Below are positions 599-5,110 of a stretch of DNA of 12,033 nucleotides, in pieces (position 1 is the first letter of the stretch; each line of letters opens with the position of its first letter). Both the position numbers and the translations under genes were made by a program. The notes under the pieces were generated by a model. That model searched no databases, had not been told where the DNA came from, and saw only the letters and a list, made by a program, of their open reading frames with translations. The stretch is from a virus. The stretch lies in UHGV virus genome UHGV-0311374. One strand, 5' to 3'.

Positions 599-884
599 AA
601 ACCGCTTGCAAAAAATTATCACGGGGCTGTATGCTTCCCCCGTCGCCCACATGGCGACCGGGTTTGACAGCCTGAATACTACAGCGGACAGCCGCTTACA
701 TTCCGATATGCGGTTTTTTTGTGTCCGTAAACCTACCCATACCCGCATTATGGCGGGGCGTAACGGGGGAGCCTTTGCGCTCGCTGGTTCCTGTAGTGCC
801 AGTCTGTCAACCCTGTTACGTCTCGCCACCATGTTTGACAGCGTAGTAGCGAGACTCCTTAATTTCACTACAGGAGCCTTTCAC

Positions 885-1374: not shown

Positions 1375-1674
1375 ATGAGAACATATTTATCTGGCTTGAC
1401 TGCCAGCGGTTATGCACACCCAAAAATTATCCCAGGCGCTATTTATCTGGATAAGAACGGTAACAGAGTAACGGTAAAAGAACTGATGTTTGACCGTGTG
1501 TATTTTATTCGTGATGGCTATTCATTTCATAGTTCGCTGAACGTGGAGATCTTTATTAGCAGATTCAGGCGGGAAATCCCGCCTTCCAGAAATAACCATG
1601 TGCCATGTATGGATGTTGATAAAAAACTACAGGAACTGAAAAACATGATTGCCGCGTGGAGAGAGCAGAAATGA
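1375..1674 (+). CDS. Hypothetical small protein, 99 aa (possibly DUF4222-like)
   Basis: ATG at 1375 with GGGGA upstream; stop overlaps the primase start (ATGA at 1671-1674); motif YLDKNGNRVTVKELMFDRVYFIRDGY resembles what I recall of small DUF4222 proteins found next to satellite primases; AT-rich. Confidence 0.5.
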   Translation: MRTYLSGLTASGYAHPKIIPGAIYLDKNGNRVTVKELMFDRVYFIRDGYSFHSSLNVEIFISRFRREIPPSRNNHVPCMDVDKKLQELKNMIAAWREQK

Positions 1675-3794
1675 AAAAAGCGCCAAATTTAAAACACCAG
1701 CCACGTGACAAAATGACGGAAGTCATCATTTTTGCGGGTAGTGATGCGTGGGCACATGCGAAGCAGTGGCAGGAACAGGACGGGCGACTGGCTGGCGATA
1801 ACGTGCCTCCTGTCTGGCTTGGAGAGCAACAACTTGCCGAACTGGATAAGCTGCAAATTGTGCCGGAAGGCCGAAAATCAGTACGCATATTCAGGGCCGG
1901 ACATCTTGAGCCAGTAATGATCAAGGCGATTGGTCAGAAGCTGGCGGCGGCAGGCGTACAGGATGCAAATTTTTACCCTGATGGAATGCACGGTCAGGAG
2001 GTGGAGAACTGGCGCGAATATCTGGCCCGTGAGCGGCAGAATCTTTCTGATGGTCTGGTTATTGAGTTTCCGGTAAAGAAAAAAGATACCGGAAGTCATA
2101 GCGATGACGAATTAAAGCCACGCGTTGAAAGTCGCGCCGATGGTGTTTTCTGGGTAACGCCCAAAGTGGATAAGCAGTCAGGCGAAATTATCCGGCCTGA
2201 GACGTGGTTATGTTCTCCGCTTGAACTACTGGGAACGGGGACGATCGGTAAAGAGCATTACCGCGTGATGCGCTGGAAAAAAACCGCAAACCATGAAGTC
2301 ATCACAATGGCGATCCCGTGTGGTGGTATCGGCGACCGTGACGGCTGGCGGTTACTTAAAGATCACGGGCTGAACGTGACAACCAACGGCAAATACAGGG
2401 CAATCCTGGCGGACTGGATGCAGTTAAGCGGAAGCCATGAGGAATGGCAGTTAAGCACAACAACGGGCTGGCATTTTGGCGCGTACATCATGCCGGACGG
2501 TTCGATCATTGGTGATTCTGAAAAACCGATCCTGTTTACCGGAAAAAGCGCCGCGATTAACGGTTATTCCGTGGCGGGTACGGCGGAGGGCTGGCGCGAG
2601 AGTGTGGCGCGGCTGGCTGGCGGTAATGCCTCAATGATGCTGGGTGTGGCAACGTCACTGGCAGCGCCTTTAATTGGCCTTGTGGGTGCTGACGGCTTCG
2701 GGGTGCATCTTTTCGAACAGTCATCGGCAGGTAAGACCACCACGCAGAACATCGCATCAAGTTTATGGGGAGAGCCGGACGCGCAGCGGCTGACCTGGTA
2801 CGGCACGGCGTTAGGTATTGCCAATGAGGCCGAGGCCCATAATGACGGGCTTTTACCACTGGATGAGATAGGCCAGGCCGGAAATGCGCGGGAAGTGTCA
2901 ACGTCTGCTTATACGCTGTTTAACGGTTCAGGGAAATTGCAGGGGGCGAAGGATGGCGGCAACAGGGAGATCAAACACTGGCGAACGGTGGCAATCAGCA
3001 CCGGAGAAATGGACGTTGAGACATTCCTCAAAAGTGAGGGGATAAAAGTTAAGGCGGGGCAGCTTGTCCGACTGCTTAACGTTCCGATGGAAAAAGCCAC
3101 GAAATTTCACGAATACAGCAACGGTAAGGAACATGCTGACGCGTTAAAGGATGCCTGGACAGCAAATCACGGGGCGGCGGGTCGTGAGTGGGTTAAATGG
3201 CTGGCAGGCCACCAGCAGGAGGCAAAGGACACGGTAAGGGAATGCCGCGAACGGTGGCGCAACCTGATACCGGAGAGTTACGGCGAGCAGGTCCACCGCG
3301 TGGGTGAACGTTTCGCCATACTGGAGGCCGCGCTTGTGCTTTCCTGTCATGTAACTGGCTGGGTCGTGCAGGAATGCCGCGACGCGATACAGTATAACTT
3401 TAATGCCTGGGTGAAGGAGTTCGGCACGGGTAACAGGGAATTTAAACAGATGGTTGAACAGGCTGAGGCGTTTTTGTCGTCGTTTGGGTTTAGCCGCTAC
3501 CTTCCGTACCCCAATACAGATGAGCGTGATTTACCGATTAAAGAGCTTGCCGGATACAGAAAAGGGAGCATTCGCAACGAAGATGACGAGATGCGCTATT
3601 ACACGTTCCCGCACGTGTTTGAGAGTGAGATAGCGAAGGGATTTAATCCGGCGCATTTTGCGCGTGCCCTGGATGCTGCCGGAATGCTGGAGAAGGGAAG
3701 CGATCGCCGATACAAAAAAAAGGCGCTGGGCAAGATTGGGGGTAAGCAGCATGTTTTTTACGTGCTGATGTTCCAGCCTGATGATGAAGATTAA
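1671..3794 (+). CDS. Replication initiation protein, primase/helicase-like (P4 alpha / PICI Pri-Rep type), 707 aa
   Basis: Long ORF; ATG at 1671 preceded by GGAGAG (the track's 1656 start is an upstream GTG); Walker A-like motif SSAGKTT in FEQSSAGKTTTQNIASSLWG; sits immediately upstream of an iteron array, as expected for a satellite or plasmid-type initiator. Confidence 0.8.
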   Translation: MKKAPNLKHQPRDKMTEVIIFAGSDAWAHAKQWQEQDGRLAGDNVPPVWLGEQQLAELDKLQIVPEGRKSVRIFRAGHLEPVMIKAIGQKLAAAGVQDANFYPDGMHGQEVENWREYLARERQNLSDGLVIEFPVKKKDTGSHSDDELKPRVESRADGVFWVTPKVDKQSGEIIRPETWLCSPLELLGTGTIGKEHYRVMRWKKTANHEVITMAIPCGGIGDRDGWRLLKDHGLNVTTNGKYRAILADWMQLSGSHEEWQLSTTTGWHFGAYIMPDGSIIGDSEKPILFTGKSAAINGYSVAGTAEGWRESVARLAGGNASMMLGVATSLAAPLIGLVGADGFGVHLFEQSSAGKTTTQNIASSLWGEPDAQRLTWYGTALGIANEAEAHNDGLLPLDEIGQAGNAREVSTSAYTLFNGSGKLQGAKDGGNREIKHWRTVAISTGEMDVETFLKSEGIKVKAGQLVRLLNVPMEKATKFHEYSNGKEHADALKDAWTANHGAAGREWVKWLAGHQQEAKDTVRECRERWRNLIPESYGEQVHRVGERFAILEAALVLSCHVTGWVVQECRDAIQYNFNAWVKEFGTGNREFKQMVEQAEAFLSSFGFSRYLPYPNTDERDLPIKELAGYRKGSIRNEDDEMRYYTFPHVFESEIAKGFNPAHFARALDAAGMLEKGSDRRYKKKALGKIGGKQHVFYVLMFQPDDED

Positions 3795-3816
3795 TCCCCT
3801 GTGTGAGAAAAAAAAT

Positions 3817-4154
3817 TGCGGGTTATGCGGGTTATCCTGTGTATAAGTGTATTAAGTGCATGAATATAAAGGAAACCAATAACCCGCACGTAACCCGCAA
3901 AAGGGCATTTATAACCCGCAAAAGCACGATTATAACCCGCAGGCGAATAACTGAAGTAACACCGGACAGTCATGCGTAACCCGCAGAAAAAACCCCGTTT
4001 GCGGGTTATTTTGAGCGTTTTGCGGGTTACGTGGTGAGCAAATAATAAACAGGGTGTTTTGCAAAATACTGATATAAAAGGATAAAAAATGGTTAGCACG
4101 CTAAGATAACCCAATAACCCGCATAACCCGCACATGTTTCTATATATATATATA
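3817..4154. repeat. Iteron array and AT-rich tract, putative origin of replication
   Basis: 9-bp TAACCCGCA in forward orientation at 3880, 3891, 3912, 3933, 3977, 4115, 4124 (degenerate ATAACCCAA at 4106) and as reverse complement TGCGGGTTA at 3817, 3826, 4000, 4021; followed by (TA)7 at 4141-4154; directly downstream of the primase gene. Confidence 0.75.
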
Positions 4155-4168
4155 AATTGAGGTGGCAA

Positions 4169-4420
4169 ATGACCAGAACACGCAGAGACAGAACAGAGCC
4201 AAAATATAAAGCGTTAGACATGACTGAGCACACCTTAAAGGTGGCAATCAGAACGATAGACCGCCACACGCGGGAAGGATACGCGAAGGAACATCCCGAC
4301 CTGATAAGCGCATTCATGACCACGGCGGCGGCAAACTTTTCCACGCTGACAGAACGGGATATTGCCGAAGCGGAACAGGTAACAACCATCAACGTTAAAA
4401 CCGGAGAGCAGACAGCATGA
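4169..4420 (+). CDS. Hypothetical protein, 83 aa
   Basis: ATG at 4169 with GAGGTG 5 nt upstream (the track's 4157 start is TTG); stop overlaps the next start (ATGA at 4417-4420); no family recognised. Confidence 0.5.
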   Translation: MTRTRRDRTEPKYKALDMTEHTLKVAIRTIDRHTREGYAKEHPDLISAFMTTAAANFSTLTERDIAEAEQVTTINVKTGEQTA

Positions 4421-4827
4421 CAGCACAGATAGCAGCTTACGGGCGGCTGGTGGACGACCCGCAGGTAAAACAGACCAGTAAGGGCACACCGATGACGCTG
4501 GCGCGTATGGCGGTATCGTTGCCATGTAGTCAGGCGCAGGATGGGCAGGCGACGTTATGGCTATCGGTCATCGCATTTGGTAAGCAGGCCGACTTCCTGG
4601 CTAAACATCAAAAAGGCGACGTTGCCAGCGTATCCGGCACGATGCAGGTCAGCCAGTGGACCGGACAGAACGGGGAAACGCGGCAGGGTTATCAGGTTAT
4701 TGCAGACAGCGTAATCAGTGCCCGTGCGGCACGTCCTGGCGGGAACAGACGCAAAACCACAGGCACACAGGGTAATCAGCCACCAGCGGGAGGCGATGAC
4801 CCTTACGGTGATGATATTCAGTTCTGA
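4417..4827 (+). CDS. ssb: Single-stranded DNA-binding protein (SSB)-like, 136 aa
   Basis: N-terminal IAAYGRLVDDPQVKQ and central WLSVIAFGKQADFLAKHQKGDVASVSGTMQVSQWTGQNGETRQGYQVIADSV parallel the OB-fold region of E. coli SSB; Gly/Pro-rich linker; acidic C-terminal tail DDPYGDDIQF resembles the SSB DDDIPF tip. Confidence 0.7.
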   Translation: MTAQIAAYGRLVDDPQVKQTSKGTPMTLARMAVSLPCSQAQDGQATLWLSVIAFGKQADFLAKHQKGDVASVSGTMQVSQWTGQNGETRQGYQVIADSVISARAARPGGNRRKTTGTQGNQPPAGGDDPYGDDIQF

Positions 4828-4837
4828 GGGGGTGACG

Positions 4838-5110
4838 ATGGTACATGACCGCATAGCGGAGGAACTCGAGGCAAAAGGCTTTTACCGGAGGGCGTCGGCG
4901 CGATGGGGTGAAGTCATGCTGCTGGTGGAGACAGACAAGGAACGGCATCAGGTTACGATGCGACGGCTGGAATGTTCCAGGAAGGCACAGAAGCCACCGG
5001 AGCCGCCGGATAACTTCGGAGACCTGAGAAAGGCAGTAGATCGCACTTATGCTGAAATGGGTATAGATGGTGTAAGCGATGAAATATGGCGTAATTACCC
5101 AGACAGCTAA
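4838..5110 (+). CDS. PerC-family-like transcriptional regulator, 90 aa
   Basis: ATG at 4838 with GAGGGGG upstream; N-terminus MVHDRIAEELEAKGFYRRASARWGEVM resembles the conserved N-terminal region of PerC-type activators as I recall it; followed by a terminator. Confidence 0.5.
   Translation: MVHDRIAEELEAKGFYRRASARWGEVMLLVETDKERHQVTMRRLECSRKAQKPPEPPDNFGDLRKAVDRTYAEMGIDGVSDEIWRNYPDS

Follow-up and report, generated by a model that had tools for sequence, protein, structure and literature searches.

The DNA analysed here, a stretch of 12,033 bp to which we refer as the window, is by Pfam and PHROG assignments a capsid-forming phage-inducible chromosomal island (cf-PICI) of the EcCIEDL933-like kind. 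Its gene set combines the island's own capsid, protease, portal, connectors, HNH, TerS and TerL with a PICI replication module, while tail and lysis genes are absent from the same Pfam and PHROG assignments; the integrase end of the island falls outside the window. Along the + strand, a DUF4222 protein and a DUF927 protein of 707–712 aa (1656–3794) precede a repeat region, a phrog_1231 protein and SSB, after which come PerC, an HK97-type capsid, protease, portal, a head closure protein, an adaptor, HNH, TerS and TerL. The window matches islands in many E. coli genomes, O157:H7 included, at about 97% identity, and its repeat region is 96.7% identical in strain EDL933, the carrier of the prototype cf-PICI EcCIEDL933. 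Replication of EcCIEDL933 after helper-phage induction has been reported (10.1101/2022.09.08.507074).

The DUF927 protein is the predicted initiator, here called Pri-Rep or Rep; its reading frame opens at 1656 and its first ATG, at 1671, gives a protein of 707 residues. The first gene downstream of the repeats (4169–4420, + strand) encodes an 83-aa protein of phrog_1231, function unknown, and is followed by ssb (4417–4827, + strand); both are replication-module neighbours that lie outside the origin described below. The reading frame of the next gene, for a PerC-family transcriptional activator (4718–5110, + strand; Pfam E 1.6e-44), overlaps the end of ssb, and the activator is encoded by the satellite itself. 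Upstream of the replication genes, Rfam recognises a C4 antisense RNA (RF01695, 72 bits) and its a1/b1 target element (RF03163) at 629–678 and 746–833 (+ strand), where relatives annotate an Icd-like cell-division inhibitor. The pair is an antisense immunity module of the P1/P7/P4 type within a cf-PICI.

Repeats between the initiator gene and the next gene

The gap of 374 bp between the Pri-Rep stop at 3794 and the next start codon at 4169 (3795–4168) is occupied by repeats over its whole length. The 9-mer TAACCCGCA is present in 11 exact copies and one degenerate copy, all within 3817–4132, the first of them 23 bp past the rep stop. Exact copies start at 3880, 3891, 3912, 3933, 3977, 4115 and 4124 on the + strand and at 3817, 3826, 4000 and 4021 on the − strand; the twelfth reads TAACCCAAT at 4106–4114, where relatives read TAACCCGCT, and the tally by orientation is 7 or 8 copies on the + strand and 4 on the − strand. 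A preliminary description of this DNA had reported about 12 copies in both orientations at 3817–4154, together with a (TA)7 tract. Its coordinates and its count are correct, and the tract lies exactly at 4141–4154.

Chance does not account for this density. About 0.003 exact copies would be expected in 374 bp, and in 200 dinucleotide-preserving shuffles the number of matches with at most one mismatch averaged 3.1 and peaked at 8, none of the 200 reaching 12. Outside the region, the 12,033-bp window holds no exact copy, and its sole other match with at most one mismatch (at 1080) is unrelated. Abutting pairs are spaced 9 bp from start to start and the others 11, 21, 21 and 21 bp, 21 bp being two helical turns, and the iteron arms form nested inverted repeats. 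In relatives, RefSeq annotates no gene within the gap; Rfam has no family within the repeat region, and IHF, Fis and GATC motifs follow no conserved pattern across loci. Two ORFs that overlap the repeats (3791–4168, − strand; 3803–3979, + strand) were rejected as genes, being unannotated in relatives, where 2-bp steps of the TA run and 1-bp indels would break their frames.

The predicted origin consists of two six-iteron modules, A (3817–3941) and B (3977–4156). The left arm of module A is a pair of abutting inverted iterons on the − strand (3817–3825 and 3826–3834), kept in position and orientation in all relatives; it is separated by a 45-bp spacer of 69% AT (3835–3879) from a right arm of four direct iterons (3880–3941, + strand; starts 3880, 3891, 3912 and 3933) at spacings of 11, 21 and 21 bp, which recur in most loci of other genera. 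The left arm of module B (3977–4029) comprises one direct iteron (3977–3985) and two inverted ones (4000–4008 and 4021–4029) 21 bp apart. A 76-bp spacer of 66% AT (4030–4105) then leads to a right arm of three abutting direct iterons (4106–4132, + strand), the degenerate copy followed by 4115–4123 and 4124–4132, a triplet found in most module-B copies. Module B closes with the T-rich/TATATA element CATGTTTCTATATATATATATAAA (4133–4156, 87.5% AT), which contains the (TA)7 tract. In both modules, iterons of opposite orientation thus flank an AT-rich spacer with at least two per side, as in origins of the SaPI type. A Rep hexamer has six C-terminal domains, as many as a module has iterons; a link between the modules and hexamer loading is speculation.

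Low duplex stability and the T-rich/TATATA element

Ranked by nearest-neighbour energy, the four least stable 30-mers of the window include three from the repeat region. The least stable of all (4132–4161) overlaps the TA tract, the second (4062–4091) lies in the module-B spacer and the fourth (3842–3871) in the module-A spacer, the 69% and 66% AT of the two spacers comparing with 47.6% for the window as a whole. A GTTTTGYWTATATA-type element begins 3–4 nt past the last iteron in 15 of 15 module-B copies, across iteron classes, and its TATMTA core is recognisable in 14 of the 15; the TA run itself has between five and seven units, (TA)5-7, in E. coli relatives. Judged by this comparison, the TA tract is a lineage-specific, length-variable expansion of the conserved GTTTTGYWTATATA element. 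Since the T-rich/TATATA element is independent of iteron class, its distribution suggests that the C-terminal domain of Rep does not read it, and it may be a candidate unwinding or priming site. The preliminary description had named the TA tract as the DNA-unwinding element. That role is plausible, but the tract is not singled out, because it is one of three low-stability segments and a length-variable expansion.

A single DnaA-box-like site in the region, TGTGTATAA at 3838–3846, is a relaxed match (TTWTNCACA) that adjoins the inverted iteron pair within the module-A spacer. In one related locus (L005, ~2648–2656) the site reads a perfect TGTGGATAA, and it is not conserved across other genera. 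A scan for terminators gave one terminator-like hairpin, on the empty − strand and within chance expectation.

Conservation in relatives and other genera

The gap of strain E6474 (L003) is 85% identical overall to that of the window, with all 11 iterons exact and in register. Against this relative, 2 of 108 iteron bases are changed as compared with 52 of 239 spacer bases (Fisher p = 1.3e-7), a pattern by which the iterons are judged to be under purifying selection. To look further afield, we fetched twelve loci whose Rep homologues are 55–75% identical to that of the window, from E. albertii, Winslowiella, Cedecea, Rahnella, Pantoea, Citrobacter, Pectobacterium, Tenebrionibacter, Apirhabdus and one metagenome-assembled Enterobacteriaceae genome. 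Eleven of the twelve carry 10–12 copies of a 9-mer right after rep, in essentially a 2+4+3+3 order, and the E. albertii locus has module A only. Counted over all related loci, the position directly 3′ of the initiator gene recurs in at least 20.

The shared layout begins about 25 bp past the stop with two abutting inverted copies, continues with an AT-rich spacer of 45–65 bp and four direct copies spaced mostly 11, 21 and 21 bp, and after a gap resumes with one direct and two inverted copies, an AT-rich spacer of 45–85 bp, three abutting direct copies and an element of the GTTTTGYWTATATA form. Minor departures are seen in a few loci, where the number of copies or the direction of the first iteron of module B is different. 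The 9-mer itself varies from locus to locus, being TAACCCACW, TGAACCACG, TGAACCAAC, TGAACCGRM or TGGGAYAAG. That the layout is kept while the word changes argues that the sites are read by a protein evolving with them.

In two of the loci, the rep frame is broken by frameshifts (L025, Apirhabdus, several at 1446–3195; L023, Pantoea rodasii, at ~3100–3160), and the iteron arrays downstream are complete, that of L025 with 12 exact copies; the frameshifts are either errors of sequencing or a sign that the islands are decaying while their origin stays intact. From phage and plasmid collections, the Rep–ori cassette is essentially missing. The 3′ end of rep and the origin were matched at 69% identity in OR845527.1 ('Escherichia phage ECO95 1-6-1', O157:H7 host), an unannotated record of 2,183 bp that probably represents a piece of a satellite submitted under a phage name.

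The Pri-Rep initiator

Residues 173–440 of Pri-Rep form a DUF927 helicase core (Pfam DUF927, E 1e-48). The protein matches PDB entry 8tch, 'Pathogenicity island protein' (E 2.5e-13), as well as SCCmec Cch (5dgk) and, weakly and far under the model cutoff, NCBIfam Cch1 (E 3e-10). On account of these matches we group it with the self-loading helicases of SaPI Rep and Cch, and from its sequence it would be a helicase of this Rep/Cch type. Among PHROG families, it matches phrog_1139, 'DNA primase' (E 8e-190). Matches to the N-terminal ~150 residues are confined to PHROG families of that name, and Pfam and NCBIfam searches with the N-terminal 180 residues gave no match, so the 'primase' label of this part comes from PHROG family names only. 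The gene upstream of the repeats, earlier called a primase gene, encodes a fused primase-helicase initiator (Pri-Rep), in which it is the DUF927 helicase core that can be recognised.

The last ~110 residues of Rep (3453–3791, + strand) are the candidate iteron-recognition domain, delimited by a drop of identity in the E. albertii Rep and by clustering with iteron class, as set out below. The searches made for a winged-helix fold in this domain did not confirm one. Pfam HTH_56, the HTH of Cch, reaches 23.8 bits against it, for a cutoff of 26.2, and is matched by 4 of 15 members; 15 such domains, run as a profile against the PDB, gave chance matches only, and AlphaFold models were unusable (pLDDT 39.7 from the single sequence and 45.5 from a 22-sequence alignment). 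A protein-database search with the domain found just 25 proteins, fragments for the most part.

Covariation of iteron class with the Rep C-terminus

The E. albertii Rep (L014) is 88–100% identical to the window Rep over residues 180–540 and 83% over 540–600; for the two terminal 60-aa bins the values are 40% and 31%. Its iteron, CTTGTCCCA, is unrelated to that of the window. The reverse is seen in the Reps of Winslowiella and Tenebrionibacter, where the core is just 50–83% identical, the C-terminus 63–70%, and the iteron, TAACCCAC, nearly as in the window. An identity matrix of the last 125 Rep residues clusters exactly by iteron class, and over 18 Rep–ori pairs, the recombinant E. albertii locus included, iteron class covaries with the last ~110–125 residues. 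From these comparisons we infer that the C-terminal ~110 residues of Rep, not the rest of the protein, set iteron specificity.

A further check, counted among the 18 pairs, came from NZ_CP148430.1 (L031), a 12.1-kb circular E. coli record in which a TGAACCAAC-class C-terminus is paired with six copies of TGAACCAAC. The record was deposited as a non-mobilizable plasmid; on it are an integrase gene, Icd-like, DUF4222 and PerC genes, and a Toprim+DUF927 Rep accompanied by the six TGAACCAAC iterons, and it looks like an excised circular satellite-like island rather than a plasmid.

Other E. coli islands place unrelated cassettes in the same slot, from the DUF4222 gene to phrog_1231/ssb. Some hold a RepA-family helicase with AAAGTGGG or AAAGTGAGG repeats and others a P4-family primase with GGTAGAYA repeats, and AACCCGC is absent from the slot in islands of both these kinds. 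The DUF4222 protein (WP_000770163.1) is identical in islands of all three repeat types and the gene downstream of the slot is ~96% identical in DNA across them; because the neighbours are near-identical across unrelated initiators and iterons, they are not the specificity factor. Within the islands that carry the RepA-family helicase (L007–L010 and L012), the gap after the helicase holds two iteron variants, AAAGTGGG(C) and AAAGTGAGG, which suggests a second, independent case of initiator–iteron coevolution in this slot.

These exchanges also bear on what the repeats are not. In an island with a different packaging module (major capsid protein, decoration protein and TerS), the Rep–ori cassette is 99% identical to that of the window. 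The preliminary description had considered the origin a likely determinant of helper specificity, a proposal that finds no support: the same cassette occurs with different packaging modules, and unrelated cassettes occur between the same flanking genes. Helper dependence of cf-PICIs has instead been assigned to induction, packaging and tail supply (10.1101/2025.02.11.637232). A role of the repeats in packaging (as a cos/pac site) or in partition we regard as extremely improbable. Repeated protein-binding sites are known at pac and par sites and module B stands at the island end in some islands, but the repeats are 99% identical beside a different capsid and small-terminase module, and they covary with Rep rather than with terminase. 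The island is integrative, and the scanned window proteins included none recognised as being of the partition type.

Module B in other positions

Module B is found beside module A in the window and elsewhere in several related islands. In five loci (L004, L005, L014, L030 and L032), only module A follows rep and ssb comes directly next, whereas in one (L017) the two modules are ~170 bp apart. In CREC-2, 10035776-3 and SCU-105, module B lies 8.2–10.6 kb downstream, at the right end of the island, in the form of three inverted copies, an AT-rich stretch and three direct copies with the TA element. In the 300 E. coli genomes found to carry it, module B was 95–99% identical to that of the window in 117 and 60–90% identical in 183, the sampled cases of the lower band being mostly of the right-end type. 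Islands located between cspD and clpS, which have a P4-family primase as initiator and separate CTGTCTACC iterons that go with it (the island type of F11/HG994850, with CTGTCTACC/GGTAGAYA iterons), carry module B at their right end too, and module B is likewise present in one island with a truncated primase.

The right-end copies (TAACCCGC iterons, three inverted and three direct, with the TA element), a feature of many E. coli islands, were located at 12976–13180 in L027, at 15590–15800 in L026, at ~9480–9660 in L028, L029 and L030, and in L013, and are followed by ~100 bp of common sequence. More short direct repeats are present near right ends, TTGTTCGT two to three times and GTGTGGTCAGTT or GGTGTAGTTAAT twice (L026 ~15990–16080; L027 ~13440–13500); these may be arm sites of an integrase or excisionase.

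Because module B also lies 8–10 kb from rep and in islands with an initiator of another family, its role in initiation is uncertain. A possible reading, which we hold to be clearly the lesser one, is that module A alone is the true origin. Module B and its TA element would then be a cis-acting accessory bound by the same Rep, either an enhancer like crr of P4 or an iteron cluster for copy control or handcuffing, rather than a place where initiation happens. P4 has an ori and a distant crr, and P1, F and RK2 carry additional control iterons. The loci with module A alone after rep, the copies of module B at the right end or ~170 bp from A, and the presence of module B in a P4-primase island with a different origin of its own all fit this reading, but module B has the full anatomy of an origin together with the least stable DNA of the window, and it tracks the C-terminal domain of Rep in the same way as module A. 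An accessory role for module B would in any case refine the main explanation, with which it is compatible.

In another rival reading, the repeats would serve transcription: a regulator would use them as operators, the TA tract would supply the −10 of a promoter that drives ssb, perC and the packaging genes, and the region would be a control region rather than an origin. A TATAAAT/TATATA run does lie 14–28 bp before the next start codon, and Rep proteins often autoregulate via their iterons. A consensus scan of 3600–4500 for sigma-70-like promoters (−35/−10, 16–18 bp apart), however, found 0 sites against 1.1 expected; module B and the TA element are retained at island ends with no island gene after them; and the repeat word tracks the initiator family and its C-terminal domain while the downstream genes stay constant. 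A purely transcriptional role is very unlikely.

Discussion

In this study, we relate a dense repeat array in a cf-PICI to the initiator encoded beside it. We put at roughly 85% the probability that the gap at 3795–4168 is the Rep-dependent vegetative replication origin of this cf-PICI, of the SaPI/PICI type, a reading built on sequence comparison. It is carried by what was computed here: that the repeats exist and are under selection, how they are laid out, how they covary with the C-terminus of Rep, and where the DNA is of low stability. The reported replication of EcCIEDL933 on induction lends it indirect support, the repeat region there being 96.7% identical. The core of the earlier proposal, an initiator-bound iteron origin 3′ of the replication gene, thereby gains from the selection on the iterons, the layout kept across genera, the C-terminal covariation and the low duplex stability, in the form of a predicted rather than a demonstrated origin.

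In the mechanism that we would propose, Pri-Rep is a hexameric helicase of the DUF927/MCM-like kind that loads itself and bears a primase-like region at its N-terminus. The last ~110 residues of the protein would bind the 9-bp iterons TAACCCGCA, and Rep assembled on the iterons would melt at least one of three segments, spacer A, spacer B or the T-rich/(TA)n element. Rep would then load itself as the helicase and subsequently prime, and the host polymerase and the island SSB would complete replication, the whole following induction by the helper phage. In this scheme we infer the binding, the melting and the exact start site, and each six-iteron module may take one hexamer.

The mobility of module B invites a bolder version, namely that the origin is truly bipartite and built of two portable modules, with six iterons apiece to suit a single Rep hexamer. 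We think this improbable on the present comparisons. If it were true, module B with the T-rich/TATATA element would be a movable cis-acting replication element, found beside A, 8–10 kb off or as an orphan. An island with an unrelated initiator and an orphan module B could then rely for replication in trans on the Rep that a co-resident DUF927 satellite supplies, which would amount to one satellite parasitising another.

With the origin reading, the replicon of EcCIEDL933-type islands is resolved to the base: it has 12 iterons in two modules, and three segments that are candidates for melting. The words TAACCCGCA, TAACCCACW, TGAACCACG, TGAACCAAC, TGAACCGRM and TGGGAYAAG are natural specificity variants for studies of how helicase initiators recognise DNA, and TAACCCGCA, TAACCCACA, TGAACCAAC and TGGGACAAG are iteron DNAs suited to comparing Rep recognition. 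The analysis may have practical use in annotating satellite origins and in building satellite-based vectors, and it leaves the current picture of PICI biology unchanged.

Several known systems share parts of this design. The alpha protein of P4 is reportedly, in work by Flensburg and Calendar from 1987 and by Ziegelin and co-workers from 1993 and 1995, a primase-helicase initiator whose C-terminus binds short iterons. Like the P4 ori and crr, the window family has two iteron clusters able to lie kilobases apart on a small satellite genome. Alpha is, in contrast, a P4-family primase with an SF3 helicase where the window initiator is of the DUF927 kind, and iteron sequence and layout differ. The origin is therefore not of the P4 ori/crr type, P4-family primases in the same slot using other iterons.

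The Vibrio PLE RepA origin and the origins of iteron plasmids (P1, F, RK2, pSC101) likewise have initiator-specific iterons beside AT-rich DNA, and the possible host DnaA box at 3838–3846 is a further likeness. Their initiators, however, are unrelated, being RepA_N or Rep_3 winged-helix proteins that recruit host DnaB, and plasmid iterons are direct repeats of 17–22 bp whereas those of the window are 9 bp long and occur in both orientations. With 9-bp iterons, a helicase initiator and one relaxed DnaA-box match, the origin does not belong with the Rep_3/RepA plasmid type.

Close in anatomy are the SaPI origins, which have 6–12 iterons immediately downstream of rep, an AT-rich centre and at least two oppositely directed iterons per side, read by a C-terminal winged-helix domain of Rep (PMC9371898). 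SaPIbov1, SaPI1 and SaPI5 share with the window the 3′ placement, the AT-rich centre, the opposed iterons and the helicase initiator, and in SaPIs it is the Rep C-terminal domain that gives iteron specificity, in agreement with the covariation found in the window family. The window differs in having iterons of 9 bp, as against 5–6 bp in SaPI, and in having two complete modules (6+6) with a conserved T-rich/TATATA element in a Gram-negative host.

Within the same element class, the origins of Gram-negative PICIs (EcCICFT073 and others; Fillol-Salom et al. 2018, PMC6092414) occupy the same position; SaPI and Gram-negative PICI origins both sit just 3′ of rep/pri-rep (PMC6092414; PMC9371898), and a pri-rep-ori segment of another E. 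coli PICI is described there as driving plasmid replication (PMC6092414). The accessible text of PMC6092414 makes no mention of a two-module structure or of a split A/B arrangement. That origins of this kind lie 3′ of pri-rep in Gram-positive and Gram-negative PICIs is already known (PMC6092414), and to this our comparison makes incremental additions: a two-module layout shared across genera, specificity mapped to the C-terminal domain of Rep, and a module B that can move or stand as an orphan.
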